64,000 nt of DNA from Patescibacteria group bacterium. GTDB taxonomy: Bacteria; Patescibacteriota; Microgenomatia; UBA12405. The notes below the pieces were generated by a model. That model made no database searches and had not been told where the DNA came from. It saw only the letters and a program-made list of their open reading frames with translations. Made by a program: the position numbers and the translations under genes. The stretch covers positions 186,371 to 250,370 of the forward strand of contig JBBTXE010000001.1 in NCBI GenBank assembly GCA_038062455.1, written 5' to 3'. Numbering within the stretch: position 1 is the stretch's first letter; each line of letters starts with the position of its first letter. Below are positions 3,634-43,850 of this stretch, one piece after another.

Positions 3634-5961
3634 ATGCCCGATGAGAGAAAATATTTACCCCTAATCCCTCTGCGTAACGTAGTCTTATTTCCTTCAGTTG
3701 AAACCTCGCTCTTTTTTGGCCGCAAAGAATCCAGTAATTCACTATTAGAAGCCTACGACAAACACAACCATTTATGTATTATTACCGCCCAGCGGAATTC
3801 CACCACCGACAAACCGGCACTCAAAGATATCTACACCGTGGCCATTTTGGCCCGCATTGAACACATTTTGCAAACCGATGGCAGTCTCCATGCTATCGTC
3901 AGGGGTCTCTCCCGGGTCAATATATTAGGTTTTGTCCAAACCGATCCCTTTATAATGGCCGAATATACCGATACACCCATTATTTCCGAGTTGGCCTCCG
4001 ATATTCAGCAATCGGCTGAAGCTCTTCTTTCCCAGTTAAAAAAAGCTTTTTCTCTTGGCCGACAATTTGATCTTCCGGCCATGATGCAGCTATCAACCGG
4101 CGTTTCTTCTTCCGACCTTGCCGACCAGGTTTCCTTTTCCGTCGAGGCTAAACTGCCGGAAAAACAAAAACTTCTGGAGACTCTTTTAGTATCAGAGCGT
4201 CTCAAGACCGCCACCGAACTACTGATTCGGGAAATGAAAGTCGCCGATCTCGAGCGTTCTATCGAAGAAAAAACTCAACAAAAATTCAATTCCACCATGA
4301 AAAGAAATGTATTAGAGGAACGCAAACACCAAATTGAACAGGAGTTAAAAAAATTGGGGAAAGAAGGGGATAGTGAATTTAGCGATTTGGAACACAAATT
4401 AAAAAAAGCTCAAATGCCTGCCGATGTCAAAAAGAAAGTTCTCAAAGAATACCACCGTCTGACCCAAATGGGTCCCATGTCTCCCGAAAGCAGTTACATT
4501 CGAACCTATCTCGAAATCATTGTTGAACTCCCTTGGGGGAAATATGATAAATCCGATCTCTCGGTCAAAAAATCAGCCAGTATCTTAAATCATGATCATT
4601 ACGGACTCAAAGAAGTCAAAGAAAGGATTTTAGAATATCTATCGGTTTTAAAACTAAAAAAAGAATCCGGTGACGACACTCAAACTGCCAACATTTTATG
4701 TTTTATTGGTCCTCCCGGAGTCGGCAAGACCTCTCTTGGCCGCTCAATAGCGCAAGCTATGGGTCGCCACTTTGTCCGGGCCTCTCTGGGTGGTATTCGT
4801 GACGAAGCCGAAATCCGTGGCCACCGCCGAACCTATGTTGGCGCTATGGCCGGTCGGATTGTCAATGGTATCAAAGACGCCAAGTCTATGAATCCCGTTT
4901 TTATGCTCGACGAGGTGGACAAAATCGGCGCTGATTACCGCGGCGACCCCAGTGCCGCCCTGCTGGAAGCTCTTGATCCCGAACAAAATAAAGACTTCAC
5001 CGACCACTATCTCGATTTTCCCCTCGACCTCTCCAAAGTCTTTTTTATTCTTACCGGCAACGATGCCTCATCGGTTCCTTATGCCCTGCGGGATCGTCTG
5101 GAAATAATTAATTTCTCCGGCTATACCCAGGAGGAAAAATACCATATTGCCGATCAATATTTAATCAAGAAAGAATTAAAAGCCAATGGATTAAAGACTT
5201 CTCAAATTTCCCCCTTCAAACCCGACACTCTCCGCTACCTTATCGACAAATATACCCGTGAAGCCGGTGTCCGTCATCTGGAACGGACCATTGCTACTCT
5301 TTTCCGCAAAGCCGCCAAAAAAATTGTGGCTGGCAATGTCAAAAAAGTTGATGTCAACGACCGCCCCCTTCTTCAAAAGTTTTTAGGCCCGGAAAAATTT
5401 TCATCCCAGCTCAAGGGCAAAAAAGACGAAGTAGGTGTCTCAACCGGACTGGCTTGGACCTCTGTTGGCGGTGATATTCTCTTTATCGAGGTAAATATCA
5501 TGCCCGGAAAAGGCCAGCTGACATTGACTGGTAAACTCGGCTCTGTCATGAAAGAATCCTGTCAGGCTGCTCTCTCCTTTGTCCGTTCCCAAGCCAAGGA
5601 GTGGGGGATTAAGGTTGATTTTCACAAAATTGATATTCATATCCATGTTCCCGAGGGTGCCACCCCCAAGGATGGCCCTTCCGCCGGTGGCGCCATCACC
5701 ACTGCCCTTATTTCCGCTCTCAAAAACCATCCTGTCCCCCGTCACATTGGCATGACCGGCGAAATAACTCTTCGGGGGAATATTCTGGAAATTGGCGGAC
5801 TTAAGGAAAAATCTATTGCCGCTCATCGGGCCGGACTAACCACTATTTTTATCCCCAAAGATAATCAGAAATCATTAGTTGAAATTCCTTCCGAAGTTAA
5901 AAAAACTATCAAATTTATCCCCGTTTCCCACTATTCCGAAATTTACAAAAAGATTTTTTAG
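3634..5961 (+). CDS. lon: ATP-dependent Lon protease
   Basis: ORF track starts at 3517, which overlaps era. I prefer ATG 3634 ([20 protein letters not shown], a Lon N-domain start). Walker [10 protein letters not shown]; protease Ser motif KDGPSAG. Confidence 0.9.
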
Positions 5962-6003
5962 TAAATTTGACAAAATGTCTTAAGTTATCTATCCTAAAAT
6001 CAG

Positions 6004-7491
6004 GTGAATTTCAAAAAAAATCGTCAACCAGAAATTAGCTTGTTTCTCCTTTTTCTTCTAGCGATTGCCCTCCCTTTTTCATTTAAAGCCTCAAGGAATG
6101 TTGCTAATGTTTATCAATATGCAACTAATCCCCTTGGCGTTGCCACTACCACCCCCCTTCCAACTTTGGGGTTAGGGGAACTAAATAACATAAAAATCTT
6201 TATCACCGATCCGATCTATTCCACCGCTACATCCCCAAATTTTACTCGGGTTACCTTTCATGTTACCGGTATTGGAGTTTCCAGTTTTAATTCACTCACC
6301 GGTAAATATTACTATGGTAGTACTCCTAAAACATTTACCTTGACTAAGGTTGGAACAGAGTTATCCGGCCGGATTGATTTATATGGCCCCGACATTATTG
6401 AGTTTTACAGCCCCAATGGGCTTTATCTTGCCTCTCTTTGTCTGGCAACCAACATGTATGGCATTAATCAAGGTGATTATCTCTATGGTCCTAAATGCGG
6501 CAGCGTCGCCAATGTTCGTATTTTTTACAATTATCCCAACTATATATATAAAAATAAACTATCAGCTGTTGCCTATTCACTTCCCTACACCAAAATTCAA
6601 ACTCCTTCATTTAAACCTACAAACGTATTTTTTATTCTCCAAAGCCCAACCGGTTTTACCAACGTCGAACCATGGATTACTCCAAACAATTCCTCTATGT
6701 GTAGCCAACCGACAGCTAAAATGATGGTTTTCAGCTCTTTTGAAGACACTTCACCTCAATATTACGATCTTATTAATGCCTATTCCTGCATGTTTCGAAC
6801 CCCCTATGGCCAACCCTTAAATGAATTTATATTTAACAATAAATATTTAACCATCCTACCCTGGTTCGGTCCTACTCCATCTCCGATTCCTACAATTACT
6901 CCAACCCCTACTCCCACTCCAACCTCAATACCTACACCGACACCACAACAATTTATTAAAGTTGACGCCCCCAATGGTGGTGAAATTTTGACTGTCGGCT
7001 CAACTACCACAATTATTTGGTCCTCCGTCGGTATAACGTTAGTCAGCCTTGATTTGATTGATCAATCCGGTTTTGGTTCTGGTATTGCCCTGAACATTTC
7101 GTCTGTTCCCAATACTCTCACTTGGGTCGTTCAAAAAACCTACCACCAACCCAATCAATCCTGGTTCAAAATTCGAATTATCGGTGACCAGAATCCAAAC
7201 ATATCCGATCTATCCGATGATTATTTTACTATCAATAGCATTCTTCCTACACCAACCAATACCCCAATTCCCACAAGTACTCTTACACCTACCCCAAGAC
7301 CATCCAATATTCCTACTCTAACCCTTTCTCCCACCAAGCGTCCAACCCCCACTCCCACAAGGCGTCCTACACCTACTCCCACCATTAGAATTGGTCGCTG
7401 CGGTACTGCTTATCTTCGTTACTGCGCACTGCGGCATATGCTTTGCCAAAGAATAAACAACCGTGACACCTGCGTTCCCTATAAAAAATAG
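6004..7491 (+). CDS. Secreted protein with Pro/Thr-rich linkers and a Cys-rich C-terminus
   Basis: GTG start; N-terminal signal/TM (ISLFLLFLLAIALPF). Two PT linkers (PTPSPIPTITPTPTPTPTSIPTPTP; PTPTNTPIPTSTLTPTPRPS...RRPTPTPT) flank a beta-sandwich-like module (APNGGEILTVGSTTTIIWSS...DDYFTI). Four Cys in the last 30 aa. Confidence 0.6.
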   Translation: MNFKKNRQPEISLFLLFLLAIALPFSFKASRNVANVYQYATNPLGVATTTPLPTLGLGELNNIKIFITDPIYSTATSPNFTRVTFHVTGIGVSSFNSLTGKYYYGSTPKTFTLTKVGTELSGRIDLYGPDIIEFYSPNGLYLASLCLATNMYGINQGDYLYGPKCGSVANVRIFYNYPNYIYKNKLSAVAYSLPYTKIQTPSFKPTNVFFILQSPTGFTNVEPWITPNNSSMCSQPTAKMMVFSSFEDTSPQYYDLINAYSCMFRTPYGQPLNEFIFNNKYLTILPWFGPTPSPIPTITPTPTPTPTSIPTPTPQQFIKVDAPNGGEILTVGSTTTIIWSSVGITLVSLDLIDQSGFGSGIALNISSVPNTLTWVVQKTYHQPNQSWFKIRIIGDQNPNISDLSDDYFTINSILPTPTNTPIPTSTLTPTPRPSNIPTLTLSPTKRPTPTPTRRPTPTPTIRIGRCGTAYLRYCALRHMLCQRINNRDTCVPYKK

Positions 7492-7513
7492 AGTAAATAA
7501 TTTAGAGAATCCT

Positions 7514-7558
7514 ATCCCTGTCGGATACTTAAGTGAAATTTACAAAAAGATATTCTAA
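7514..7558 (+). repeat. Relic copy of the lon 3' end ([14 protein letters not shown])
   Basis: Reads in frame as [14 protein letters not shown]-stop, versus the lon C-terminus [14 protein letters not shown]-stop at 5917..5961. 17-nt exact core GAAATTTACAAAAAGAT (5938..5954 and 7535..7551). Confidence 0.7.
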
Positions 7559-7560
7559 CC

Positions 7561-7644
7561 CGTCATTGCGAGGGTAATACCAAAGCAATCACCACATTGT
7601 GGTATACGACTATATTAAGATTGCCACGCTTCGCTCGCAATGAC
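7561..7644. repeat. Imperfect palindromic element (GTCATTGCGAG...CTCGCAATGAC) between convergent genes
   Basis: Left arm cgtcattgcgagggtaataccaaagcaatc (7561..7590). Inner palindrome accacattgtggt. Right arm gattgccacgcttcgctcgcaatgac (7619..7644), the imperfect reverse complement of the left arm. Sits 6 nt from the argS stop, so it could act as a bidirectional terminator. Confidence 0.7.
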
Positions 7645-7650
7645 AAAAAC

Positions 7651-9963
7651 TCACATCTTTTCCAATATCTTTATTCCTAGTATCGTCAAACCGTCTTTAA
7701 TTATTTTAGCCGTCACTTTGGTCAAAAATAATCTCTGTTCTTCATGTGCTTCGCCGATAATCCGATGTTTTCCATAAAACTCATTATATTTCCGGGCTAA
7801 TATCAGCAAATATTCTGCCAACACTGCCGGAGAAAATCTATCCGCCGCCTCAACTATTTTTTCGCTATATTGATAAAAATACCGCAGTAGTGCCTTTTCC
7901 TCTTCATTAAATTCGTAATTTGTAATTCGTAATTCGTAATTGGTTTTGGCTTTAGCCAAAACGCTCCGGCATCTGGCATAGGTATATTGCAAATATGGTC
8001 CCGAATTTCCCTCCATACTCATCACTTTATCCCAATCAAAAATGATGTCCCTTTTGGGGTCAGCCGATAAATCATTAAATTTAATCGCTCCAATGGCTAC
8101 TGCTTCAATCTCCGCCTCAGTGTTTGTCGGGGCAATCTTTTTTGCCTGTTCTTTAGCCGTTTCTATTATTTCGGCCAAGTGGATTGTGTCACCTTTCCGA
8201 GTAGAAAATTTGCCTTCTTTCCAACGGATTAGACCATGCCCTATATGGATAAAACTATCTCCCCAGCCCATCAATCTGGCTGCCGCAAAAACTTGTTTAA
8301 AATGCAGGTTTTGTTCCGACCCCACCTCATAAATAATTAAATCCGGATTCCATTTTTCCTTTCTAAATTTGACCGTCGCCATATCCCGGGTAAAATAGGT
8401 TGTGGCTCCGTCGGACTTAAGAAGCATTGCCGGCGGAAGACTCTTCATCTCCACCATCAGTGCCCCCTCTGATTTCTTGGTTAGGCCTCCAGCCTTCATT
8501 TCTGAAATCACTTCCGGAAGCATTGGCAAATAAAACGCCTCACCGTAAGCATTATCTATTTTGACATCCAGCATTTCATAAACCCGGTTAAATTCATTCA
8601 TTGATATATCAACGCAATCCTGCCAGATTTTTTTAGCTTCTCCATTACCTTGTTCCAGTTTGGCAAACCAGGCTCGAGCCTCGTCCTCCAGTGTTTTATC
8701 AGTTTCGGCTTCTTCATGAAACTTCACATACAACTTTTCCAAGCCCTCAATTGTCTCCTCCATTCCCCAATGTTTAATTGCGGTAATCATTTTGCCAAAT
8801 TGAGTTCCCCAATCACCCAAGTGGTTGTCCCCGATGCATGTCCAACCTAAGGTTTGGTAAATATTGTAGAGTGCCTGACCGATGTTGGTCGACCGCAGGT
8901 GGCCTATCCCAAAGGGTTTGGCAATATTCGGGGCGCTGTAATCGATTACCATTGTTTTTCCTTTACCAATTTTTTTCAGCTCATCTTTTTGTTTACCGTT
9001 TAATATTTTTTCGGCCTCTTTTGCCAATACTTCTTGTTTCAGCCAGAGGTTTGAGAAACCGGTCACCTTATCCATTTTTTCAATAATATCCAAATCGGTT
9101 ACATCAACATCTCCCCGTATTGCAAAATCCCCAAAGTTATCCGCCGGATGGGTTATCGGTACACCAACTTTATCGTGTATATTTTTTGCCAGAAAATAAT
9201 ACTTCTTTTCCACCACTTTCTTTTCTATCTTATTTACTTCAAAATCAGCTAGTTTTTTTGATTCAAAATTAATCTCTGCTTCCGGATGATCTTTATTGAG
9301 AATCAAAATTTCCCCCTTACCTCCAAGATTCCTAGTCACATAGTCAATAAATTCTTCAGCAATTTTAACTAGTTCTTCTTTATTGCTTTCAAATCCATCC
9401 ATGACAAAATAGCCATTTTTAGATTCCGGAGTTAATTTAGTCCGATCACACTGTCGCCAGTTCCAAGATCGGCAGGTAACGTCTAGATCATCCCGCCAGA
9501 TCAATTCCCCTTCAAATGCTGGTTTACTTTTGGTTGAGCCAATGACCACCCATCTTTCCCCACCTTTGGCTAATGTTAGTACCAAGTTCCCGCAAGACTG
9601 ATCCAAATTTTCTCCGCCAAACGGTGTCAAATACTTGACACTAAAAGCATTGTAGGTATTAACAATGGTGTTAATATCGGGCAGCTTTGAACCTTCTAAA
9701 AGCCTCTTGGTTAGGGCTATGTGCGATGGTTCGGCTTCCTCGATGGCTCCAAAATCTTTAAACACTTTTCGGTATTCAGTTACTCTTTTATCTTTTTCCC
9801 ATGTTACCTTATCTATATTTTTTAAAAAATCGTTTTGCACTGTATCCAAAAACATGGCCGATTCTTCTCTTTTTATTCCGGCATTAAATCCGTAAACAAT
9901 CGGTACCACCTCCACCATCTCCGGAAATTTCTCAAATACCGTTTTATCAATTTTGAATTTCAT
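7651..9963 (-). CDS. argS: Arginyl-tRNA synthetase with N-terminal B3/B4 (PheRS-beta-like) domain
   Basis: 770 aa. The C-terminal ~520 aa are ArgRS (PNIAKPFGIGHLRS, DHLGDWGTQFGKM, GNSGPYLQYTYARCRS, DALR-type anticodon domain). The first ~235 aa match the COG3382 B3/B4 family pattern (LPDINTIVNTYNAFSVKYLTPFGGENLD...TCRSWNWRQCDRTKLT). Confidence 0.9.
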   Translation of the reverse strand: MKFKIDKTVFEKFPEMVEVVPIVYGFNAGIKREESAMFLDTVQNDFLKNIDKVTWEKDKRVTEYRKVFKDFGAIEEAEPSHIALTKRLLEGSKLPDINTIVNTYNAFSVKYLTPFGGENLDQSCGNLVLTLAKGGERWVVIGSTKSKPAFEGELIWRDDLDVTCRSWNWRQCDRTKLTPESKNGYFVMDGFESNKEELVKIAEEFIDYVTRNLGGKGEILILNKDHPEAEINFESKKLADFEVNKIEKKVVEKKYYFLAKNIHDKVGVPITHPADNFGDFAIRGDVDVTDLDIIEKMDKVTGFSNLWLKQEVLAKEAEKILNGKQKDELKKIGKGKTMVIDYSAPNIAKPFGIGHLRSTNIGQALYNIYQTLGWTCIGDNHLGDWGTQFGKMITAIKHWGMEETIEGLEKLYVKFHEEAETDKTLEDEARAWFAKLEQGNGEAKKIWQDCVDISMNEFNRVYEMLDVKIDNAYGEAFYLPMLPEVISEMKAGGLTKKSEGALMVEMKSLPPAMLLKSDGATTYFTRDMATVKFRKEKWNPDLIIYEVGSEQNLHFKQVFAAARLMGWGDSFIHIGHGLIRWKEGKFSTRKGDTIHLAEIIETAKEQAKKIAPTNTEAEIEAVAIGAIKFNDLSADPKRDIIFDWDKVMSMEGNSGPYLQYTYARCRSVLAKAKTNYELRITNYEFNEEEKALLRYFYQYSEKIVEAADRFSPAVLAEYLLILARKYNEFYGKHRIIGEAHEEQRLFLTKVTAKIIKDGLTILGIKILEKM
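7909..7941 (-). repeat. 7-nt tandem repeat (AATTACG x ~4.5) in frame inside argS
   Basis: Minus strand aattacg aattacg aattaca aattacg aattt encodes NYELRITNYEF at the junction to the anticodon-binding domain. Confidence 0.8.
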
Positions 9964-20175: not shown

Positions 20176-22035
20176 ATGTCGGATCTCACCGATCAACGCC
20201 TCCAAAAACTGGCCGCTATCAAAAAACTAAAACTTGATCCCTATCCTCAACCCAACCTGGAAAAACGGGACTGGTGTCAGGAAGCTGCTCAAAAACTTGA
20301 TAAAATCGTTACTGTTGCCGGCCGTCTCCTGCTTCTCCGCGGCCACGGCAAAATTTTGTTTGCCGATCTTGTCGACAAAACCGGCAAAATCCAACTTTTT
20401 TTTGAACAAAACACTCTTGACGCTAAAATGGGTTTGGTTAAACTTTTAGATTTAGGTGACATTATTTCCGCCATCGGCACCGTTTTCAAAACTCAAGCCG
20501 GTGAAATTACCGTTCGGGTTTCTGAATTTCAAATTCTGGCCAAAAATCTCCGCCCTCTTCCGGAAAAATTTCATGGGCTGACCGATGTCGAGGAACGCTA
20601 TCGTCAACGTTACGTTGATCTGATTGTCAATCCTGCATCCCGGGAAGTTTTTCTCACCCGTAGCAAAATATTAACCGAAATGAGGCGTTTTTTTGACGTT
20701 CATGGCTTTTTGGAAGTCGAAACTCCCATCTTGCAGCCGGTCTATGGCGGCGCCTCGGCCAAACCTTTTGTCACCCGCCACCATGAATTAAATCAGGACA
20801 TGTATCTGCGGATTTCCGATGAACTTTATCTAAAACGCCTGATTGTCGGCGGTCTGGAAAAAGTCTATGAGGTTTCCCGGGATTTTCGTAATGAAAGTGT
20901 CTCCCGTTTTCACAATCCCGAATTTACTCAAGTCGAATTTTATTGGGCCTATGTTGACTATGAAGTCCTGATGCGTTTTACCGAAGAGCTGATCTCTCAT
21001 TTGGTCAATACCATCAAAGGTTCTTTAAAAGTCACTTTCCAAAACCAAACCATCGATTTTACCCCGCCATATCCGCGTCTCACTTTCCGCGATGCTGTCC
21101 TCAAATACACCAAAATTAACATCGACGATATTAATACCGAATCCGATTTTATTCATGCATTAGAAATTAGACATTTGAAATTAGAAATTACGGGGCTCAT
21201 TGGCTTAGGAGCCCTGTTCGACGCCCTCTACAAAGAATATGTTCGCCCCAAGCTAATCGGTCCGCTTTTCCTTACCGATTATCCTTCAGAAATGATTGCT
21301 CTGGCCAAAAGGAAAGCCGATGACCCCCGAAAAATTGCCTCTTTTCAGCTTTTAGCCTGTGGTACCGAGCTTTTAAAAGCCTACAATGAGTTAAATGATC
21401 CCCGGGATCAAAAAGACCGTTGGCTTCAGGAAGAAATCTTGGCCAAAAGGGGATTGGAATCGGCCATGCCGATTGATGATGATTATATTCGGGCCCTGGA
21501 ATACGGTATGCCGCCCACCGCCGGCTGGGGGATGGGTATTGACCGCTTCACCCAATTCTTAACCGACTCCCCTACTATCAAAGACGTAATTTTGTTCCCC
21601 TCCATGAAAAACGAAACCACCCCCGTCATTGCGACCCCCGGATCGTCATTGCGAGGTAATCCGAAGCAATCTCCACCGAGTGGCGAGATCATCATCGGTC
21701 AGGTTACGGAAATTAAAGATCACCCATCTGCTGAAAATTTAAAAGTTGTTATGGTCAAGGTTTCAGACTCCGATTCCCGCCAAATTGTCTGTGGAGCCGA
21801 TAATTATCAGGTTGGTGATCTTGTCCCGGTGGCTCTTCCCGGTACTACTGTTCCCACTCCCGATGGCGGTACTCAAGTTATTGCCAAGGTTAAACTTCGC
21901 GGTGTTGAATCTGACGGCATGCTCTGTTCACCCCTAGAAGTCGGCGCTTCCTCCGATCACACCACTATTCACATCCTTTCAAAAGAACTCGAAAAGCATC
22001 TGGGGAAACCTATTGTTGAATATCTGAAGGAATAA
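20176..22035 (+). CDS. lysS: Lysyl-tRNA synthetase (class II) with C-terminal tRNA_bind (Trbp111/CsaA-like) domain
   Basis: 619 aa. OB anticodon domain; class II motifs (RDFRNESVSRFHNPEFTQVEFY, GMGIDR). Extra ~115 aa C-terminal domain GQVTEIKDHPSAENLKVVMVKV...IVCGADNYQVGDLVPVALPG...KLRGVESDGMLCS. Confidence 0.9.
   Translation: MSDLTDQRLQKLAAIKKLKLDPYPQPNLEKRDWCQEAAQKLDKIVTVAGRLLLLRGHGKILFADLVDKTGKIQLFFEQNTLDAKMGLVKLLDLGDIISAIGTVFKTQAGEITVRVSEFQILAKNLRPLPEKFHGLTDVEERYRQRYVDLIVNPASREVFLTRSKILTEMRRFFDVHGFLEVETPILQPVYGGASAKPFVTRHHELNQDMYLRISDELYLKRLIVGGLEKVYEVSRDFRNESVSRFHNPEFTQVEFYWAYVDYEVLMRFTEELISHLVNTIKGSLKVTFQNQTIDFTPPYPRLTFRDAVLKYTKINIDDINTESDFIHALEIRHLKLEITGLIGLGALFDALYKEYVRPKLIGPLFLTDYPSEMIALAKRKADDPRKIASFQLLACGTELLKAYNELNDPRDQKDRWLQEEILAKRGLESAMPIDDDYIRALEYGMPPTAGWGMGIDRFTQFLTDSPTIKDVILFPSMKNETTPVIATPGSSLRGNPKQSPPSGEIIIGQVTEIKDHPSAENLKVVMVKVSDSDSRQIVCGADNYQVGDLVPVALPGTTVPTPDGGTQVIAKVKLRGVESDGMLCSPLEVGASSDHTTIHILSKELEKHLGKPIVEYLKE
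21160..21192 (+). repeat. 7-nt tandem repeat (TTAGAAA-like x ~4.5) in frame inside lysS
   Basis: ttagaaa ttagaca tttgaaa ttagaaa ttacg encodes LEIRHLKLEIT. Confidence 0.75.
21623..21690 (+). repeat. In-frame copy of the GTCATTGCGAG palindromic element inside lysS
   Basis: cgtcattgcgac ccccggat cgtcattgcgaggtaatccgaagcaatctcc..., versus the intergenic copy cgtcattgcgagggtaataccaaagcaatcacc at 7561. Translated as PVIATPGSSLRGNPKQSPPSGEII. Confidence 0.75.
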
Positions 22036-25756: not shown

Positions 25757-28432
25757 ATGCTCGGATTCATAACCAATCTCTTTGATGAAAATGCGAAGCG
25801 GTTAAAAACTTACCAACCTTTGGTTGACAAAATCAACTCCCTTGAACCAAAAACTAAAAAACTTACCGATAAACAACTATTAGTCAAAACCGATGAGTTT
25901 AAAAAACGATTAGCCAAAGATGAAACTCTTGACGATCTTTTACCCGAAGCCTACGCTGTCGTTCGCGAAGCCATCGGCCGGACTATTAATCAACGCGCCT
26001 TTGATGTTCAACTCATGGCCGCCATCGCTCTTCATCAGGGCTCCATCGCCGAACAACGCACCGGAGAGGGTAAAACCCATTCAGTTATCTTTCCCGCTTA
26101 CCTCAATGCCCTAACCGGCCTTGGAGTTCACATTATCACCCCCAACGACTATCTCACCCGCGTCGGCACCGGCTGGTACCCCCAAGCCCTCAATCTTCTG
26201 GGCGTTTCCACTTCGGCCATTGTCCACGAGGAATCCTTTATTCTTGATCCGAAATTTACCGACCCCAGTGAAACTGTTGATGATCGTCTGGCCCATCTTC
26301 GCCCTATTTCCCGTCAGGAAGCTTACCGCGCCGATGTTACCTATGGCACCAATAATGAATTTGGCTTTGACTATCTCCGCGACCACATGGTCAAAAACTT
26401 TAACCAAAAAGTTCAGCGCCCCGAATTCAATTTTGCCATTGTCGATGAAGTTGACTTTGTCCTAATTGACGAAGCCCGTACCCCGCTGATTATTTCTTCA
26501 CCCAATTCGGAGCCGGTCGATAAATACTATCAATTTGCCAAAATCGCCGCCCAGCTTCAACCGAACGATTACGTCGTTGACGAAAAATCCAAAAGCGCCA
26601 CCCTCTCTGAATTCGGCATCCGTCGCGTCGAAAAGATCCTTAATATCGGCAATCTTTACGAAGAATCTTTTGCCACCATCCATTATATTGAAAACGCCAT
26701 TAAGTCCCAAACTCTTTTTCACAAAGACAAAGACTATGTCATCAAAGACGGCGAAATTATTATTGTTGACGAATTCACCGGACGGCTGATGCACGGCCGC
26801 CGTTGGTCCGATGGACTTCATCAGGCCGTCGAGGCCAAAGAAAACGTCAAAGTTCAGCAGGAATCCCAAACTTGGGCCACCATTACTTTTCAAAATTATT
26901 TCCGGCTTTATAAAAAATTATCCGGCATGACCGGCACCGCCGCCACCGAAGCCGAAGAGTTTCGCAAAATTTACCATCTCGAAGTCGTTACCATTCCCAC
27001 TAATCAAAATCTGGTCAGAATTGACTCCGAAGATTTAATTTTCAAAAATCAGCGGGCCAAATATGCCGCTATCGCCGCCGAAGTCGCCAAACTTTACGCC
27101 AAAGGCCAGCCGGTCCTCATCGGCACCACCAGCATTGCTAAAAACGAAATTATTGCCTCCATGCTTAAAAACAAAGGCATACCTTTTCAACTATTAAATG
27201 CCAAAAACCATCGCTCCGAAGCTGAAATTATTGCCAAAGCCGGCAAATTAAAAGCCGTTACTGTGGCCACCAACATGGCCGGTCGGGGAGTTGACATTAT
27301 TTTGGGTGGCCCCAGTGACAAACAAAGCCCCAAAGATTGGCAAAAAGAACATAACGAAGTTGTTCGCCTCGGCGGCCTTTTCGTCATCGGTACCGAACGC
27401 CACGAATCCCGCCGTATCGACAACCAGCTCCGCGGCCGCTCCGGCCGTCAGGGAGACCCCGGTTTTTCTCAATTTCATGTGGCTCTGGACGATGATTTAA
27501 TGCGCATCTTTGGCGGCGACAAAATTTCCGGTCTGATGACCCGCTTTAATATGCCCGAAAACGAGGCCTTAACTCATCCTCTGGTTTCCCGGGTGTTGGA
27601 ACAAATTCAGGTCAAGGTCGAAGGTTACAATTTTGACATCCGCAAAAACCTGGTCGAATACGACGATGTTATCAACAAACAACGCCAAATTATTTACTCT
27701 CTTCGTGATAATACTCTCCAGCAGGCCAAACTAGATCCGGCCAAAAATAATCTAAAAATTGAAGAGGTTTTAGGCTCCGAAATCAGCCGTTTAGTCCTTA
27801 GTCTCCCTGATTCCGAAGCTCTGACTTTGGAATTTTCTGAAATTCTCCCGTTAAACCCCCTCGACCGCCGCCGTCTGGAAAAGGATTTGGCTACAGTTCC
27901 CGACAAATCCATTCATTTAACCAATATTCTTTTAGATCAATGGCAGGAGCGCCAGAAATATTTTGGCGAGACTATCGGTCACGATATTGTTACCTATGCC
28001 ATTATTGAAGCTCTCGATCCTCTCTGGGTCGGTCACCTCACCGCCCTTGATGATCTCCGCGACGGTGTCCGTCTCCGCGGTTACGCTCAAAAAGATCCTT
28101 TAATTGAGTATCGCAAGGAAGGTTATGAAATGTTTCAGGCTCTGATGCGCCGTTTTGAGGCCAATCTTTGCCGGATGCTCTTTCGCCTCGAACCTATCGA
28201 CCAACCGGCTTTTACCCCGCAACAAGCCACCGAAGCCCGCGGCGACATTCTCGACCCCAACGCTCCCGTTGAAGACGTAGCCACCGACATTGCCGACATA
28301 TCCGCCAAACAATCTTTATCCCGCGGTGCCTATGTGGAGCCTTCTTCTGCCCCCACCATTGGTCGTAATGATCCATGCCCCTGCGGTTCGGGGAAGAAGT
28401 GGAAAAAATGTCACTACCCACAACTTAGTTAA
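25757..28432 (+). CDS. secA: Preprotein translocase ATPase SecA
   Basis: ORF-track start 25733 is TTG; the conserved N-terminus is MLGFITNLF at 25757. DEVDFVLIDEARTPLIIS, MTGTA, TNMAGRGVDI; C-terminal Zn finger CPCGSGKKWKKCH. Confidence 0.9.
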   Translation: MLGFITNLFDENAKRLKTYQPLVDKINSLEPKTKKLTDKQLLVKTDEFKKRLAKDETLDDLLPEAYAVVREAIGRTINQRAFDVQLMAAIALHQGSIAEQRTGEGKTHSVIFPAYLNALTGLGVHIITPNDYLTRVGTGWYPQALNLLGVSTSAIVHEESFILDPKFTDPSETVDDRLAHLRPISRQEAYRADVTYGTNNEFGFDYLRDHMVKNFNQKVQRPEFNFAIVDEVDFVLIDEARTPLIISSPNSEPVDKYYQFAKIAAQLQPNDYVVDEKSKSATLSEFGIRRVEKILNIGNLYEESFATIHYIENAIKSQTLFHKDKDYVIKDGEIIIVDEFTGRLMHGRRWSDGLHQAVEAKENVKVQQESQTWATITFQNYFRLYKKLSGMTGTAATEAEEFRKIYHLEVVTIPTNQNLVRIDSEDLIFKNQRAKYAAIAAEVAKLYAKGQPVLIGTTSIAKNEIIASMLKNKGIPFQLLNAKNHRSEAEIIAKAGKLKAVTVATNMAGRGVDIILGGPSDKQSPKDWQKEHNEVVRLGGLFVIGTERHESRRIDNQLRGRSGRQGDPGFSQFHVALDDDLMRIFGGDKISGLMTRFNMPENEALTHPLVSRVLEQIQVKVEGYNFDIRKNLVEYDDVINKQRQIIYSLRDNTLQQAKLDPAKNNLKIEEVLGSEISRLVLSLPDSEALTLEFSEILPLNPLDRRRLEKDLATVPDKSIHLTNILLDQWQERQKYFGETIGHDIVTYAIIEALDPLWVGHLTALDDLRDGVRLRGYAQKDPLIEYRKEGYEMFQALMRRFEANLCRMLFRLEPIDQPAFTPQQATEARGDILDPNAPVEDVATDIADISAKQSLSRGAYVEPSSAPTIGRNDPCPCGSGKKWKKCHYPQLS

Positions 28433-34191: not shown

Positions 34192-34890
34192 AGTTCCAAA
34201 AGAATAATCACCCCGGATTGCTTCGGGTAAATGACATAAATCTTTGATATCAAATACAAATATGGGTATTCCCGATTCCTCGCACATAGTAAAAGCCGTT
34301 TGGTCCATTACCCCTAATCTTTCATGAATTACTGCCCGATAATTTAGTTCCGGATATTTTTTAGCGTCTGGATATTTTTTGGGATCTTTATCATAAACCC
34401 CATCAACCGTACTGGCCTTAAAAATCATCTTACATTCAAGCTCGGCCGCATATTGAGCCACGGCTGAATCGGTTGAGAAAAACGGTATTCCCAATCCCCC
34501 CGCAATAATTACCAGTCGGTTATTAGCCAAATGATACCGGCCCTTAATTAAAATAAAAGGTTCAGCCACTTGGGGAATATTTATCGAAGTCATCAATCGG
34601 GTATTTTCGGCGCCATTTCTAACCAAAGCTTCCCGCAATCCGATTCCATTCATAATTGTTGCCAACATTCCCATTGAATCAGCCTGTGTCCGGTCAACTC
34701 CGACACTGGCCTCCCGGCCCCGAAAAATATTTCCTCCGCCTACCACCATCGCCAATTGGACCTTTGTTTGTTCCCGAATCTCAATTATTTGCCTGGCCAC
34801 CACCTCATATTGTTCAAAATCAATCTGCTTTCCTTCACTTTCAAACAGCTGGCCGCTAAGTTTCAGTATGGCTCTTTCCACTATTCCCAT
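34177..34890 (-). CDS. pyrH: UMP kinase
   Basis: KLSGQ, VVGGGNIFRG, GIPFFSTDSAVA, VDGVYDKDP. Confidence 0.9.
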   Translation of the reverse strand: MGIVERAILKLSGQLFESEGKQIDFEQYEVVARQIIEIREQTKVQLAMVVGGGNIFRGREASVGVDRTQADSMGMLATIMNGIGLREALVRNGAENTRLMTSINIPQVAEPFILIKGRYHLANNRLVIIAGGLGIPFFSTDSAVAQYAAELECKMIFKASTVDGVYDKDPKKYPDAKKYPELNYRAVIHERLGVMDQTAFTMCEESGIPIFVFDIKDLCHLPEAIRGDYSFGTLISG

Positions 34891-34997
34891 TGTTGAAGGA
34901 TTGTATTTTATCGTTCTCGAGTTGTCAATTCTTTGTTTCGCCTTTTCTTCGGTTTTGCTTCTTGACTTATTCCATTTTACCCGCGTATCATTTTTAT

Positions 34998-35840
34998 ATG
35001 AATGATAACCATCTCGCCATTTTTAAAGGTAAAAAAATTAGAAGAGAAATTTATTTAAATGAGTGGTGGTTTTCGGTGGTTGATATTTGTGAGGCTCTAA
35101 CTGAAAGTACAAATGGCGGTGCCTACTGGCGTAAGTTAAAACAAAGGCTAATTTTAGAGAGTAATCAGGTCGTGACATTTTGTCACGGACTGAAATTAAC
35201 TGCCTCAGATGGGAAAAAGTATATAACCGATTGTGCCGATACCGAAGGTGTCTTCCGTATCGTTCAATCTATTCCTTCTCCTAAAGCCGAACCATTCAAA
35301 CGTTGGTTGGCAAAAGTTGGTTATGAAAGAGTGCAGGAAATAGAAAACCCGGAGTTAGCGACCAAACGAACAAGGGCACTTTACAAACTTAAGGGTTACC
35401 CTGAAGATTGGATTGAAAAACGGATGCGGGGTATTGCTATCCGCGAAGAATTGACTGATGAATGGGACCAGCGTGGCGCCAAATTACAAAAAGATTATGA
35501 AATATTAACTGCTGAAATTTCCAAAGCCACTTTTGGCGTCACCCCAAATGAATACAAAAAACTCAAAGGTCTTCAGCGGGAAAATCTCCGTGATCACATG
35601 GATGATTTTGAATTAATCTTTACTATGTTAGGAGAAAGGTCAACTACTGAAATCCACCGTCAGGAAGAATCGAAAGGTGTACCAAAATTAAAACACGATG
35701 CAGCACGGGGAGGCAAAATCGCCGGTCATGCCAGAGCAGAGCTAGAAAAAGAAATTGGCCGATCAGTAGTTTCCAGACAAAACTATCTGCCAAATGGAAA
35801 AACAAAGTTGTCCAAAATTATGAAGAGTTTAAAAAGCTGA
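34998..35840 (+). CDS. Bro-N domain protein (antirepressor/DinD-like)
   Basis: Prefer ATG 34998 (MNDNHLAIFKGKKIRREIYLNEWWFSVVDICEAL = Bro-N pattern). The ORF-track start at 34890 is a TTG abutting pyrH. Confidence 0.6.
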   Translation: MNDNHLAIFKGKKIRREIYLNEWWFSVVDICEALTESTNGGAYWRKLKQRLILESNQVVTFCHGLKLTASDGKKYITDCADTEGVFRIVQSIPSPKAEPFKRWLAKVGYERVQEIENPELATKRTRALYKLKGYPEDWIEKRMRGIAIREELTDEWDQRGAKLQKDYEILTAEISKATFGVTPNEYKKLKGLQRENLRDHMDDFELIFTMLGERSTTEIHRQEESKGVPKLKHDAARGGKIAGHARAELEKEIGRSVVSRQNYLPNGKTKLSKIMKSLKS

Positions 35841-35884: not shown

Positions 35885-36718
35885 ATGAAAAATAAAAAAG
35901 TAAACGTCCGCGGGTTTGAAATAATTATATTCAGAAAAAACCTTAGCGACTATATATCTCTAACTGACATGGCAAAATTTAAAAATACCGATGATCCTCG
36001 ATATGTAATTCAAAACTGGATGAAGACACGATTTACTGTCGATTTCTTGGGAATATGGGAACAAATTTATAATAATAATTTTAACCGTGTCGAATTCGAC
36101 ACCTTTAGACTTGAGGTTGGGACAAATGCTTTTGTAATGACTCCACAAAAATGGATTAGCAAAACAAATGCCATTGGATTAATTTCCAAGGCAGGCCGTT
36201 ACGGCGGTGGTACTTTTGCTCATCAGGACATTGCTTTTGAATTTGCCAGTTGGCTAAGCCCCGAATTTAAACTTTATTTGATTAAGGAATTTCAACGGCT
36301 TAAATTTGAAGAAAATGAAAGGTTGTCTCTCGGTTGGGATGTTAAACGTCAGTTAACTAAAATTAATTATCGGATTCATACCGATGCTATCAAAGAAAAT
36401 TTAATTCCCAATTCATTAACCAAAAAACAAACCAATGTTATCTATGCTTCCGAAGCCGATGTTTTAAATGTTGCCTTGTTTGGTAAAACAGCTAAAGATT
36501 GGCGTGAAGAAAACATAAATAAAGAAGGTAATATTCGCGACTATTGCGATGTCACCCAACTGGTTGTTTTGGCAAATCTTGAGGGAATAAATGCGCAATT
36601 AATTCGGCAAAATTTACTACAGTCAGACAGGTTAAGTCAATTAAACAAAATCGCTATTTCACAAATGAAGTCTTTAGTCAACAATTCATCAATTAAAAAA
36701 CTAGAAAGTAGAAATTAA
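35885..36718 (+). CDS. KilA-N domain protein
   Basis: YISLTDMAKF...GGTFAHQDIAFEFASWLSPEFKLYL matches the KilA-N DNA-binding domain pattern. Confidence 0.7.
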   Translation: MKNKKVNVRGFEIIIFRKNLSDYISLTDMAKFKNTDDPRYVIQNWMKTRFTVDFLGIWEQIYNNNFNRVEFDTFRLEVGTNAFVMTPQKWISKTNAIGLISKAGRYGGGTFAHQDIAFEFASWLSPEFKLYLIKEFQRLKFEENERLSLGWDVKRQLTKINYRIHTDAIKENLIPNSLTKKQTNVIYASEADVLNVALFGKTAKDWREENINKEGNIRDYCDVTQLVVLANLEGINAQLIRQNLLQSDRLSQLNKIAISQMKSLVNNSSIKKLESRN

Positions 36719-36719
36719 A

Positions 36720-36740
36720 TTATCCCTTTCTCCCCGCCCT
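36720..36740. repeat. 21-nt direct repeat, left copy (duplicate of the typA 3' end)
   Basis: ttatccctttctccccgccct is identical to 37914..37934, which is the typA stop codon plus its last 6 codons (RAGRKG*). Confidence 0.85.
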
Positions 36741-36778
36741 CACCCAGTCAATTATTGTAATAAATTTTCACAATTCTA

Positions 36779-36807
36779 TTGACAAACAATTTTACATCAG
36801 CTACCAT
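36779..36807 (+). promoter_or_regulatory. Putative promoter of the TA pair (near-leaderless)
   Basis: TTGACA (36779..36784), 17 nt, TACCAT (36802..36807). The ATG lies only 5 nt downstream at 36813. Confidence 0.4.
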
Positions 36808-36812
36808 AGGTT

Positions 36813-37583
36813 ATGGCTATAACATTTTTCAAACAACTTCGCCTAAAAAACAACTTTAGCCAATCCTTTGTCGCTTCCCACCTTTGTGTTTCCCGACCCA
36901 CCTATATGCAAATAGAAAAAGGGGAACGGGAATTGGTGGTCAGTGAGGCTCGAAAACTAGCTGATCTCTACGGTCTGACTCTTGAGGCTCTACTTGGAGA
37001 ACAGGATATTAAAGTGGGTATAACAGAATTAAAACAATCCAAGAAAATATTAAACCTGCCCCGGGTTTACATTCCTCAAAACAACATCGAAAAATTTAAA
37101 CAAGTGCTACTTTACCTTTTGGGCAAGGTTGGTTCGCGCCCAAATATTGGAGAAACAGCCGTTTATAAAATACTCTATTTTATTGACTTTGACTATTACG
37201 AAAAATACGAAGATCAGTTAATTGGCGCCAAATATATCCGGAATAATTATGGCCCGACTCCGGTTCATTTTAAAAAAGTGGTTGATAAAATGATCAAGAA
37301 TGGTGAGCTGGAAGCTGTATCTAGTAAATATTTTCAATATCCTCAGAAAAAATATTTACCGAAAATATCGGCAGACTTATCTAAATTATCCGGCCAGGAA
37401 ATAGCCCACATTGATGATGTTCTGGCTCGACTATCCGGCAAAAGCGCTAAAGAATTAACTGACTACTCTCATACCGACAATCCTTGGATGACTAAAAAAT
37501 CAGGCGAAATTTTAGATTACGAATCAGTTTTTTATCGGGACGCCCTCCATTCGGTACGGGACAACAGCCATGATCAACTATGA
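36813..37583 (+). CDS. XRE-HTH + Panacea (DUF4065/SocA-like) domain antitoxin
   Basis: N-terminal HTH (LRLKNNFSQSFVASHLCVSRPTYMQIEKGERE). C-terminal ETAVYKILYFIDFDYYEKYEDQLIGAKYIRNNYGPTP matches the DUF4065/PanA pattern. Confidence 0.7.
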   Translation: MAITFFKQLRLKNNFSQSFVASHLCVSRPTYMQIEKGERELVVSEARKLADLYGLTLEALLGEQDIKVGITELKQSKKILNLPRVYIPQNNIEKFKQVLLYLLGKVGSRPNIGETAVYKILYFIDFDYYEKYEDQLIGAKYIRNNYGPTPVHFKKVVDKMIKNGELEAVSSKYFQYPQKKYLPKISADLSKLSGQEIAHIDDVLARLSGKSAKELTDYSHTDNPWMTKKSGEILDYESVFYRDALHSVRDNSHDQL

Positions 37584-37911
37584 AAGACTATCCGCTTTCG
37601 ACAAAGAATATAAAAAACTTTCCAAAAAGTTTCGCTCACTTGACTCCGATTTAACAGTCTTTAAAGAAGCACTGGAAATTTTTCCTTGTGGTCAAAGCAA
37701 TAATAGTGAAATAGTAAACGACTCCGGTAATGTGAAAATTATTAAATCAAGATTGTTTTGTCGATATTTACGTGGCTCAACCCTAAGAATTGTTTATGCC
37801 TTCCATAAGAGTGAAAATATGATTTGTTTTATCGAAATTTATTTTAAGGGTCAAAGGGAAAATGAAGATCGAAACAGAATAAAATCCTATTTAAGCGAGT
37901 TAAAAATATAA
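37570..37911 (+). CDS. RelE/ParE-superfamily-like toxin
   Basis: 113 aa; 14-nt overlap with the antitoxin. FDKEYKKLSKKF N-terminus and LRIVYAFHKSENMICFIEIYFKGQRENED C-terminus resemble RelE/ParE-type toxins. Confidence 0.5.
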   Translation: MINYERLSAFDKEYKKLSKKFRSLDSDLTVFKEALEIFPCGQSNNSEIVNDSGNVKIIKSRLFCRYLRGSTLRIVYAFHKSENMICFIEIYFKGQRENEDRNRIKSYLSELKI

Positions 37912-37913
37912 CC

Positions 37914-39746
37914 TTATCCCTTTCTCCCCGCCCTGGTTCTGTCGACTCTGGTTAGATATTTTTTTCGTAGCCGCACCGTTTTGGTAGTGACGTCGATGAG
38001 TTCGTCGCTTTCGATAAAATCCAGAGCTTCTTCGATACTATATTTCACTGCCGGGGCCAGAATTATGGCATCATCATTGCCGGATGAGCGCATGTTGGTT
38101 AATTGTTTCCCCTTGCAGACGTTAATTTCCAGGTCGCCGATCACCGGCCGCAGTCCCACCACTTGTCCCTCATAGACTCCTTCCGTCGGCTCGACAAAGG
38201 TAATCCCTCTTTTTTGGGCAATATCCAGACCAAAAGACAGGGCTTTGCCGCTTTTATCGGCAATTAGTACTCCGTTTCGCTCCCGTTTTAAATCAACACC
38301 TTTCGGCTCGTAACCAAGCGACAAAAAGGTTATGGCGACCGAACCCCGGGTATCAGTCATTAGTTTGCTTCGTAGCCCCAGCGCATTTCTCTCCGAAATC
38401 CGGTAGATGGCTTTGGTGCCCATTTTTTCATCACTGACCATATCCAACATTTGGGCTTTTCTTTTACCCATTTCGGTAGTCACTACCCCGACAAAGTTGT
38501 CCGGGGCGATTATAGTTACTTCAGAAAATGGCTCCATGGTTTTTCCCTCCACGGTTTTATAAATCACTTCCGGTTTACCCACTTCCATGGCGTAACCCTC
38601 GCGCCGTAATTTTTCAATTAAAATGGCCAAATGCAATTCACCCCGGCCGGCCACAATCATTCTGATACTGTCGGTTTTATCATCCTCGACTTTCATTCCC
38701 AAATTGGTTTCTACTTCTTCCAGCAATCTTTCCTTAAGCTCGCGGCTGGTTAAAAATTTCGCCTCATCGCGGGCAAAAACGGAGGTATTGGGACCAAAAC
38801 TGGCCTTAATCGTCGGCTCACTTATTTCAATGGAGCTAATCGCTACCTGATAATGGGGATCAGTGATAGTCTCACCGATTTTTATGTCCGGTATTCCCGC
38901 TAAATAAACTATTTCCCCGCTTTCGGCCTCCGCCGCCTCTACTTTTTTTATTCCTTCATTAACATACATCTTTTCAATCCGGTAATTGCCTACCAATTTT
39001 TGATCCGGTTTTATTAAAGACACAAAATCACCCTTGCGTACTTTTCCCTGCGAAATCCGGCCCAAAGCGAGGTTCCCCAAATACTCATTTTTATCAAAAG
39101 CCGAAATCTGCATTTGCAGCGGTTTATCTGATTTGACTCTAGCCGAAGGAATATATTTTAGGATAGTTTCAAAGAGGGGAGTGGTATCGCCTTTTTCTTC
39201 CATATTTTCCGGCATTTTGTCAAAAGTTTTGCCGTCGCGGCCAAAAGCATAAATAATGGGAAAATCGAGCAAATCATCATCGGCAACAACTGTTAAAAAT
39301 AAGTTTTCCGTATCCCGGATAACATCGGCCACCCTTGCATCCTTTCGGTCAATTTTGTTAATCACCAAGATTATTTTTAGCCCAAATTCCAGCGCCTTTT
39401 TTAAGACAAATTTAGTTTGGGACAAGGGTCCCTCGGCCGCGTCAACTATAAGAAGCGCGCCGTCGGCCATATTTAGCACTCTCTCCACCTCACCGCCAAA
39501 ATCAGCGTGTCCCGGAGTGTCAATAATGTTGATCTTTACCCCTTTATAGAACACCGAGGTATTTTTGGATAATATGGTAATTCCCTTTTCCCGTTCCAGA
39601 TCATTGCTGTCCATAATCCGCTCCTGTTGCATTTCCATTTCGTTTTCACGGAAAGTTTTGGTCTGTTTCAGCATCGCATCCACCAAAGTAGTTTTGCCAT
39701 GATCGACGTGGGCAATTACCGCAATATTTCTGATATCAAAATTCAT
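37914..39746 (-). CDS. typA: Translational GTPase TypA/BipA
   Basis: AHVDHGKTTLVD, DTPGHADF, NKID; EF-G-like domains; 610 aa. Confidence 0.9.
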   Translation of the reverse strand: MNFDIRNIAVIAHVDHGKTTLVDAMLKQTKTFRENEMEMQQERIMDSNDLEREKGITILSKNTSVFYKGVKINIIDTPGHADFGGEVERVLNMADGALLIVDAAEGPLSQTKFVLKKALEFGLKIILVINKIDRKDARVADVIRDTENLFLTVVADDDLLDFPIIYAFGRDGKTFDKMPENMEEKGDTTPLFETILKYIPSARVKSDKPLQMQISAFDKNEYLGNLALGRISQGKVRKGDFVSLIKPDQKLVGNYRIEKMYVNEGIKKVEAAEAESGEIVYLAGIPDIKIGETITDPHYQVAISSIEISEPTIKASFGPNTSVFARDEAKFLTSRELKERLLEEVETNLGMKVEDDKTDSIRMIVAGRGELHLAILIEKLRREGYAMEVGKPEVIYKTVEGKTMEPFSEVTIIAPDNFVGVVTTEMGKRKAQMLDMVSDEKMGTKAIYRISERNALGLRSKLMTDTRGSVAITFLSLGYEPKGVDLKRERNGVLIADKSGKALSFGLDIAQKRGITFVEPTEGVYEGQVVGLRPVIGDLEINVCKGKQLTNMRSSGNDDAIILAPAVKYSIEEALDFIESDELIDVTTKTVRLRKKYLTRVDRTRAGRKG

Positions 39747-43766: not shown

Positions 43767-43850
43767 TACTAAAACCCCGCCGAAAATAAGCCTATAGTTT
43801 TGACTTTCAATTGATATTGTTGTATTTTAGCGTTGATATTATTATTCTAT

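Follow-up and report, generated by a model that had tools for sequence, protein, structure and literature searches.

How does a gene for a secreted protein come to stand between two versions of the end of one and the same housekeeping gene? The question is raised by a 64-kb stretch of DNA (the window in what follows) from Candidatus Shapirobacteria (Microgenomates, Candidate Phyla Radiation, CPR), an uncultivated groundwater bacterium. In it the gene lon, coding for the ATP-dependent protease La, is followed by a single open reading frame (ORF), ORF495, then by a second, non-coding copy of the last 45 nt of lon, and finally by the convergent gene argS. An earlier note, made from the sequence, had read this as the footprint of an element that integrated into the 3' end of lon while carrying a replacement end. 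This proposal has stood up to comparison: relatives have empty sites, the cargo is not shared with them, and the similarity of the two ends is above chance. The evidence supports describing the insertion as an island that has no integrase and occupies the 3' end of a housekeeping gene, an arrangement already known in principle. We also believe, with a fair measure of confidence, that horizontally acquired DNA was integrated here by a Campbell-type event, through a look-alike of the lon end. Contigs and loci from the same or related genomes carry the labels L001-L351.

Two ends of lon around one gene

The lon gene is intact (3634-5961, forward strand, 775 aa, with the Pfam domains LON_substr_bdg, AAA, Lon_lid and Lon_C); its true start is the ATG at 3634 and its C-terminus agrees with the clade consensus. 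Sequence comparison identifies the working 3' end (5917-5961, forward strand) as the left copy of a 45-nt duplication, similar to a left attachment (att) site, attL; it reads ATC CCC GTT TCC CAC TAT TCC GAA ATT TAC AAA AAG ATT TTT TAG. The displaced, non-coding copy (7514-7558, forward strand), an attR-like relic that lies directly against a palindromic element, reads ATC CCT GTC GGA TAC TTA AGT GAA ATT TAC AAA AAG ATA TTC TAA. The stop codons of both copies align in frame, and the frame of the relic differs from that of ORF495 (6004-7491). The two 45-mers share 31 of 45 nucleotides and an exact core of 17 nt, GAAATTTACAAAAAGAT, which an exact-match search placed at 5938-5954 and 7535-7551 (both forward strand), exactly two occurrences in the 64 kb. 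In coordinates, sequences, number of identities and extent of the core, the first description of these two lon ends around an ORF was accurate.

The core is A/T-rich, and the degenerate pattern EIYKKIF matches many unrelated public contigs, including that of a CRESS-DNA (circular Rep-encoding single-stranded DNA) virus, so that a chance resemblance in AT-rich, low-complexity sequence has to be considered. At the local base composition, the binomial probability of 31 identities is 2.4e-9 per position. Among all 45-mers on the two strands of the window, the highest scores against the lon end were 45 (itself), 31 (the relic) and 27 (the next best). For the core with up to two mismatches, 0.14 matches are expected in shuffled sequences, and the motif [IV]P[IV]....E[IV]Y..IF appears in the six-frame translation of the window at the lon end and the relic only. 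With the stops in frame, the relic at the position where relatives have their lon stop, and the lon end of a close relative (L332) aligning to both copies, chance is effectively refuted and we give it next to no weight.

The arrangement was present in eight near-identical contigs from different samples, four of which (L001, L002, L006 and L008) cross both junctions into argS. Identical contigs come from Hainich groundwater assemblies (runs ERR3654040, ERR3858110-12 and ERR3858128-29) and from the runs SRR32696696 and SRR32696699. As both junctions are spanned, with no mismatch there, in four independent assemblies, the repeat is not an assembly artefact.

Empty and filled sites in relatives

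A Lon scan of species-representative genomes gave ca. 25 Shapirobacteria loci, and all searches together gave ca. 35 lon/argS loci. The two genes are convergent neighbours in every scanned locus that reaches far enough, and argS (7651-9963, reverse strand; an arginyl-tRNA synthetase, ArgRS, with an N-terminal B3_4 domain according to Pfam) is the conserved right-hand neighbour of lon, with synteny in the ca. 35 loci. About 12 of these are empty or nearly so. Among the Lon-scan loci the gap measures 0-55 nt in eight species and 190-1270 nt, with unrelated small genes, in the others, and none of the ca. 25 has ORF495 or a second lon end. ORF495 was absent from all the relatives' loci examined; a situation in which every relative has the same cargo and none has an empty site is thus not what is found.

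The closest relative found, L332/L333, is a 795-kb contig that was reached by a search with the ArgRS C-terminus and then by gene-context look-ups; its Lon is 97.7% identical to that of the window in amino acids and 91.9% in nucleotides (background 78-93%). In L332, lon ends ...ATT TTT TAA and is followed by TTT, the orthologous palindromic element and argS, that is, by the empty site that the earlier note had suggested looking for. The layout in L015 is likewise empty, and in ca. ten more species the gap measures 0-55 nt. The final 45 nt of the L332 lon were aligned by blastn to window positions 5916-5960 and also to 7513-7558, with breakpoints of the insertion at 5961 and 7513. Since this one lon end matches both copies, the window amounts to an L332-type site with an additional 1597 nt, a 45-nt duplication forming the flanks. 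Right next to the palindromic element, the relic takes the place that the lon stop has in L332, L013, L015 and L308, in agreement with the idea that the displaced native end was left at the far junction.

Taken formally, the comparison with L332 reveals an insertion flanked by a 45-nt target duplication. A transposition-like or Cas1-like reaction with staggered cuts ca. 45 nt apart, after which the downstream, non-coding copy decayed, would produce this pattern. Casposons, too, insert at the 3' ends of conserved genes, with duplication of the target. Against such an origin, the ends of the cargo carry no terminal inverted repeats, neither the cargo nor the window encodes a transposase or Cas1, and we know of no system that makes a duplication of 45 nt.

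The other filled gaps (L010-L041, L335, L336, L348 and L350) contain mostly antisense small ORFs and no relic; these relic-less gaps were filled by another route. One of them (L350/L351, 6090-7148) has a Wzy_C gene (O-antigen ligase-like) that is co-directional with argS and overlaps the lon stop, again with no relic. Matches in L024 were considered as relics and discarded, one being a borderline lon-end match and the others two tandem paralogous genes in the gap. The contig L009 (CAZSLG010000060.1; Lon 91% identical) stops 13 nt into the repeated lon-end segment, which may reflect another repeat or strain variation at the lon end.

A second insertion with a different cargo

A second bracket was found in L223 (Ga0210051_1000510), among the matches listed by a metagenome scan with the degenerate EIYKKIF pattern. 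Its Lon and ArgRS are 91 and 84% identical to those of the window and the synteny is the same. Here the lon end (4260-4307 of L223, by sequence comparison) is followed by a single gene with a Glycos_transf_2 domain in Pfam (a GT2 glycosyltransferase, 4328-5281) and, 15 nt past this cargo, by the lon-end relic (5297-5341). A perfect repeat of 40 nt is common to the two copies and begins at the lon codon where the repeat of the window begins, both relics reading ...CT|ATC CCy GTC. At this point the relic of L223 starts with ATC and the working lon of L223, L009 and L335 with GTC, so that the incoming element seems to have supplied the relic's left arm. The relic's 3' flank, TAA TAA ATCATT..., is similar to the one that lon natively has in L335, and the sequence at the end of the working copy, TTC TGT TAA TTTGC, is new. 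Under Campbell-type integration two independent insertions would share their left boundary because that boundary would be a property of the attachment site (attP) of the incoming elements.

There are other ways to account for the two cases. The lon/argS gap is variable, with different genes in each species, so donors in which lon is followed by a cargo plausibly exist. One scenario would be a one-off import from related Shapirobacteria by homology-facilitated illegitimate recombination: the 3' part of a donor lon, with ORF495 behind it, would have been anchored in lon while the other end was joined illegitimately 45 nt upstream of the recipient lon stop, and the relic would be the truncated native lon end. 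The genome encodes DprA and SSB, making natural transformation plausible, the right junctions have a short microhomology (window, ...ATCCT|ATCCC; L223, ...ATCT|ATCCC), and the lack of an integrase would need no explanation. However, the events in the window and in L223, with different cargo, must then have been joined at exactly the same nucleotide of lon. The sliding identity of lon to L223, L009 and L332 shows neither a drop nor a jump towards the 3' end, i.e., no foreign segment, and the identity of the L223 copies over 40 nt, including lineage-specific synonymous sites, is unexpected with a foreign donor. We regard such an import as unlikely.

The same left boundary could also appear in two lineages without any site-specific enzyme if the lon end had been duplicated only once, in the ancestor of the window and L223, with the cargo replaced later and gene conversion keeping the copies partly alike. 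L332, L335 and L336 would then have lost the insertion precisely, by recombination between the repeats, and direct repeats of 40-45 nt could indeed mediate both precise deletion and conversion. Yet a non-functional 45-nt relic must in this case have outlasted a nucleotide divergence of ca. 20% in lon between the lineages, the replacement of the cargo would still call for an unexplained insertion mechanism, and the bracket is absent from every other relative, the closest included. An ancient duplication of this kind appears to us very improbable.

Divergence between the two copies

All differences between the two copies in the window (14/14) fall outside the 17-nt core (hypergeometric P = 2.4e-4), and a manual count of synonymous third positions found 5 of 6 differing outside the core versus 0 of 5 inside. 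A serine codon switches from TCC in the working lon end to AGT in the relic. The codons GGA, AGT, ATA and TTC of the relic are each found in lon of other Shapirobacteria, which leaves plausible the earlier suggestion that the ends come from different lon alleles. On the other hand, the relic has Tyr-Leu in place of a His/Arg-Tyr pair that is conserved in all ca. 24 clade relatives compared (in a wider set of Lon homologues the first position of the pair varies), and no Lon with a Gly-Tyr-Leu ending was found among 120 close homologues, so that Tyr-Leu is probably decay or an untranslated look-alike and not a living allele. The loss of His-Tyr for Tyr-Leu is what would be expected of a stretch that was never translated.

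Judging from the sequences, this pattern of divergence would suit hybrid att sites, in which arms from two parents border a common block, more closely than it would suit neutral decay. By rough arithmetic, the 31% divergence of the copies exceeds the decay expected since the split from L332 (about half of 26%, the relic-to-argS divergence). A target-site duplication followed by decay sits badly with differences that avoid the core and with the serine switch. Moreover, its copies should not differ right at the stop, as they do even in the young L223 case (TTC TGT TAA against TTT TAA TAA). Since the L223 copies differ at the stop codon, the working copy there includes sequence that is new and cannot be a mere duplicate. 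What this mechanism would explain well is that the L223 copies are still identical over 40 nt and that repeat lengths are alike at three sites (45 and at least 40 nt at lon, and 49 nt at a second gene, typA, described below). Taking everything together, we consider a target-site duplication quite unlikely.

A similar bracket at typA

When 73 ORF ends of the window were scanned, a downstream copy scoring above all controls was found at lon and typA only. The working 3' end of typA/bipA (37914-37962, reverse strand; gene 37914-39746) matches the BipA C-terminal consensus, to which the displaced end KFITIIDWVRAGRKG* (36720-36768, reverse strand, located by sequence comparison) conforms only partly. 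These copies of the last 49 nt, 1.2 kb apart, are identical at 37 of 49 positions, with 21 nt including the stop exact (P = 7e-13). They enclose a toxin-antitoxin cassette (36769-37913, forward strand, by Pfam), which consists of an antitoxin with HTH and SocA_Panacea domains (36813-37583) and a 113-aa ORF, the putative toxin (37570-37911); G+C at third codon positions (GC3) is low in both genes, 28-36%. Cargo of this type is typical of mobile DNA. It lies antisense to typA, unlike what a co-linear import from a syntenic donor would give. Beyond the relic, before pyrH, there are KilA-N (35885-36718) and Bro-N (34890-35840) genes.

The same scan applied to 352 gene ends in related loci gave the L223 lon case and a borderline one, argS of L011 (4624-5036), in which the end copy is identical at 24 of 30 nt and scores only just above the controls. 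The ArgRS of L011 ends NILGIKTVEKM*, a 112-aa ORF read as MazG-like starts 1 nt further on, and 12 nt past its stop stands HFMGIKKVEKIE... A possible third copy in the window, of the serS end at 26091-26122, was dismissed as chance: it is inside the secA coding sequence and scores near the controls.

How the insertion may have formed

The Campbell-type integration that we favour would have involved a horizontally acquired segment from about 5962 to 7513, in which a promoter-like site precedes a single gene, the product being a secreted or surface protein. A single reciprocal crossover would have paired the last 45 nt of lon, as the bacterial site (attB), with a look-alike that served as attP on DNA entering the cell, presumably as a circle. 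The crossover would have rebuilt an intact lon (attL, 5917-5961) and left a second, untranslated end (attR, 7514-7558) next to argS and the palindromic terminator element. The crossover point would lie within or next to the 17 nt that match exactly, and the diverged flanks would be arms from two different parents. The sequence predicted for the empty-site junction (attB) is TCCCACTATTCCGAAATTTACAAAAAGATATTCTAACCCGTCATTGCGAG and that for the circle junction (attP) is GAGAATCCTATCCCTGTCGGATACTTAAGTGAAATTTACAAAAAGATTTTTTAGTAAATTTGACAAAATG.

As to the agent of the crossover, the insertion could be a decayed, integrase-less island similar to a cis-mobilizable element (CIME), or a cassette on which a recombinase from another locus acts in trans, or else host homologous recombination (RecA) could have acted on the short homology after natural transformation. 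With att-like ends kept and no integrase, a CIME or a cassette that depends on a trans-acting enzyme makes the closest comparison. The presence of DprA and SSB genes nearby makes natural transformation plausible and the RecA route conceivable.

Several observations weigh against this scenario. Pfam families of integrases, excisionases, recombinases and transposases are missing from the cargo and from the ca. 60 ORFs of the window, so the earlier remark that no integrase is present holds for the whole 64 kb. A search for the four-way att pattern gave no match in JGI metagenomes, a collection that may not contain the population, and the contigs that encode identical Lon or TypA are all filled, look-ups that included ORF495 giving identical arrangements. 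Degenerate lon-end searches of IMG/VR viral contigs returned no look-alike and no candidate attP. The lon and typA cores share no motif, so one site-specific enzyme cannot explain both brackets. Most of the 17-nt core coincides with the best-conserved stretch of the lon alleles, many relatives differing there at 0-2 positions; as it is conserved among alleles anyway, its identity is only partly evidence for a crossover. Finally, the bracket occurs in only two of the ca. 35 sampled lon loci, the remaining filled gaps being without a relic.

Other searches around the site were also negative. No integrase-bearing occupant was seen at the lon site in the small sample of ca. 35 loci. A 2.2-kb IMG/VR contig, L202 (...PVKIKKEIYKKIF*), was considered as an attP circle and rejected: its ORFs were read, without a family scan, as Rep-like and capsid-like, i.e., as those of a CRESS-DNA virus, in which AT-rich intergenic sequence happens to match. 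The 45-nt repeat does not fold better than shuffled sequences (z = -1.5 for the working copy and +1.0 for the relic). An AT palindrome at attL (5939-5968) and a 7-6-7 dyad, GAAATCT-ACAAAA-AGATTTT, seen in most lon alleles, were discarded as recombinase core sites, their folds not being significant and typA having no counterpart.

The cargo and its neighbourhood

Immediately after the lon stop, and brought in with the cargo, there is a promoter-like site, TTGACA-17-TATCCT (5967-5995, forward strand), a candidate promoter by its 10 of 12 matches to the consensus. ORF495 (6004-7491, forward strand) starts 42 nt past the lon stop. Its translation has an N-terminal signal or anchor sequence and two Pro/Thr-rich linkers, in keeping with the earlier characterization as a linker-containing secreted protein; the label Cys-rich does not apply, there being only a four-Cys motif within the last 30 residues. 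A weak match to Kre9_KNH (Ig-like, E = 0.008) was the only one in Pfam, and homology searches of 5.8 billion proteins found no full-length homologue, so that this gene is an orphan. Its GC3 (35.5%, against a window mean of 40.6%) is about one standard deviation below the mean and not clearly deviant, and we have set aside the idea that it is foreign by composition. Expression could come from its own promoter, from lon read-through, or from both, and would end at the old lon/argS terminator.

A spacer of 22 nt (7492-7513, forward strand) separates the cargo stop from the relic and ends ...AATCCT directly before it. Next to the relic comes the 92-nt palindromic element GTCATTGCGAG...CTCGCAATGAC (7559-7650), orthologous to that of L332, with a predicted fold of -28.9 kcal/mol (z = -5.0). 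The convergent genes lon and argS probably shared it originally as their terminator; after the insertion, lon by itself has no obvious terminator. The ends of this element enclose, in L013 and L308, an ORF between lon and argS that was read as GIY-YIG-like from its sequence, without a family scan, and since the same ends flank that ORF, the element of the window looks like an empty derivative resembling a miniature inverted-repeat transposable element. Further sites of the element lie at 21620-21690 and 47176-47186. The first of them is within a gene (20176-22035) for a class II aminoacyl-tRNA synthetase (Pfam tRNA-synt_2) with a C-terminal tRNA_bind domain, probably lysyl-tRNA synthetase. The linker between these two domains (...TPVIATPGSSLRGNPKQSPPSG..., nt 21620-21690) is an in-frame translated half of the palindromic element, pointing to a fusion of genes across what was once an intergenic element. 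The palindromic element is also where several short-read contigs break; the contig ends seen lie either there or part-way into the lon-end repeat, and the lon-end repeats may contribute to assembly breaks.

The argS side of the locus also varies. The ArgRS of the window has 770 aa, and the B3_4 fusion was seen in the window, L039, L041, L217 and L223 only, while the closest relatives, L332 and L336, have an ArgRS of 521 aa without this domain, which is otherwise known from PheRS beta. In L011, L012 and L022 the ArgRS at the same position is 34-39% identical, against the 55-67% usual in the clade, and argS there has apparently been replaced by a xenologue at a hot spot. Elsewhere in the window, a LytR_cpsA_psr gene is followed by an isolated 229-aa ORF (43833-44522); this ORF has an AEP-like primase domain (E = 3e-8) and is possibly what is left of another mobile element.

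Comparison with known systems

Integration at the end of a target gene is well established for e14 in icd of Escherichia coli, with its displaced icdC (PMC13626634, citing Hill et al. 1989). The same principle applies to islands in tRNA and tmRNA genes (PMC4383910) and to CIMEs, with repeats of 8-60 bp (PMC5704250). The prophage e14 (and phage 21) splits an essential housekeeping gene at its 3' end and supplies a substitute end, as in lon. The displaced C-terminal fragment (the icdC pseudogene) is likewise left at the far junction, with copies that differ mostly in conservative or synonymous ways (PMC13626634). At 15 kb, e14 has its own integrase and excisionase and excises upon SOS induction. 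The lon insertion, unlike e14, is 1.6 kb long, with a single gene, a duplicated stretch of 45 nt and no recombinase nearby. Thus, of the features by which insertions of the e14/icd type are recognised, direct repeats and an empty site in relatives are found at lon, and an integrase within the element is not.

CIMEs are decayed integrative and conjugative elements (ICEs) or integrative and mobilizable elements that have lost the genes for integration and transfer and have kept attL and attR (PMC5704250). The lon insertion, with its 45-nt repeat and no recombination genes, agrees with this definition (PMC5704250). Tandem accretion at the regenerated target is possible for CIMEs (PMC5704250), and the typA locus, with KilA-N and Bro-N genes beyond the relic, may be an example of it. 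What identifies a CIME is its homology to a complete ICE with the same att specificity, whereas the lon element has no known complete parent. The known CIMEs come from Firmicutes and this one from a CPR organism, and the cargo boundaries here are unusually tight, 2-44 nt from the repeats.

In the streamlined genomes that harbour tycheposons there are cargo islands, with partial target copies scattered by successive integrations (bioRxiv 10.1101/2020.12.28.424599). The present case differs from these and from the tRNA and tmRNA islands by its protein-coding targets (lon and typA), its single-gene cargo and the absence of a tyrosine recombinase from the ORFs scanned. There is also a likeness to integron cassettes: these are single-gene and mostly integrase-less units with the recombination site directly after the ORF, and different cassettes occupy one fixed chromosomal site. 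Unlike integrons, there is no IntI (in the Pfam scan of the window), no attI or structured attC and no array; besides, the repeat is a copy of a housekeeping-gene end and the toxin-antitoxin cargo has the opposite orientation. In comparison with transposons and casposons, the terminal inverted repeats and the transposase or Cas1 are missing here. A brief literature search found no description of cassettes of this kind in CPR bacteria.

Gene gain in CPR bacteria

The genomes of CPR bacteria are tiny and streamlined, and few mobile elements have been recognised in them. How these organisms gain accessory genes, such as those for surface proteins, glycosyltransferases and toxin-antitoxin modules, is poorly documented, and the lon locus offers a clean, base-resolved example. 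Given the empty site, the second cargo in another species and the second target in the same genome, the ends of conserved genes appear to be landing pads in this lineage, with occupants as small as one gene and without a recombinase of their own. Displaced gene-end fragments could also be used as a computational marker for recently gained genes in metagenome-assembled CPR genomes. Much more speculatively, and we would put only a little weight on this, Shapirobacteria and perhaps other CPR bacteria might practise a cassette exchange, in which small circles would transport single genes or operons, equipped for mobility with nothing but ca. 45 nt from the 3' end of a conserved housekeeping gene (lon, typA and possibly argS), and would be inserted and excised by a recombinase of the host or one acting in trans, or by RecA after natural transformation. 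If this were true, these ultra-small genomes would sample accessory genes in an integron-like manner without having to carry integrases.

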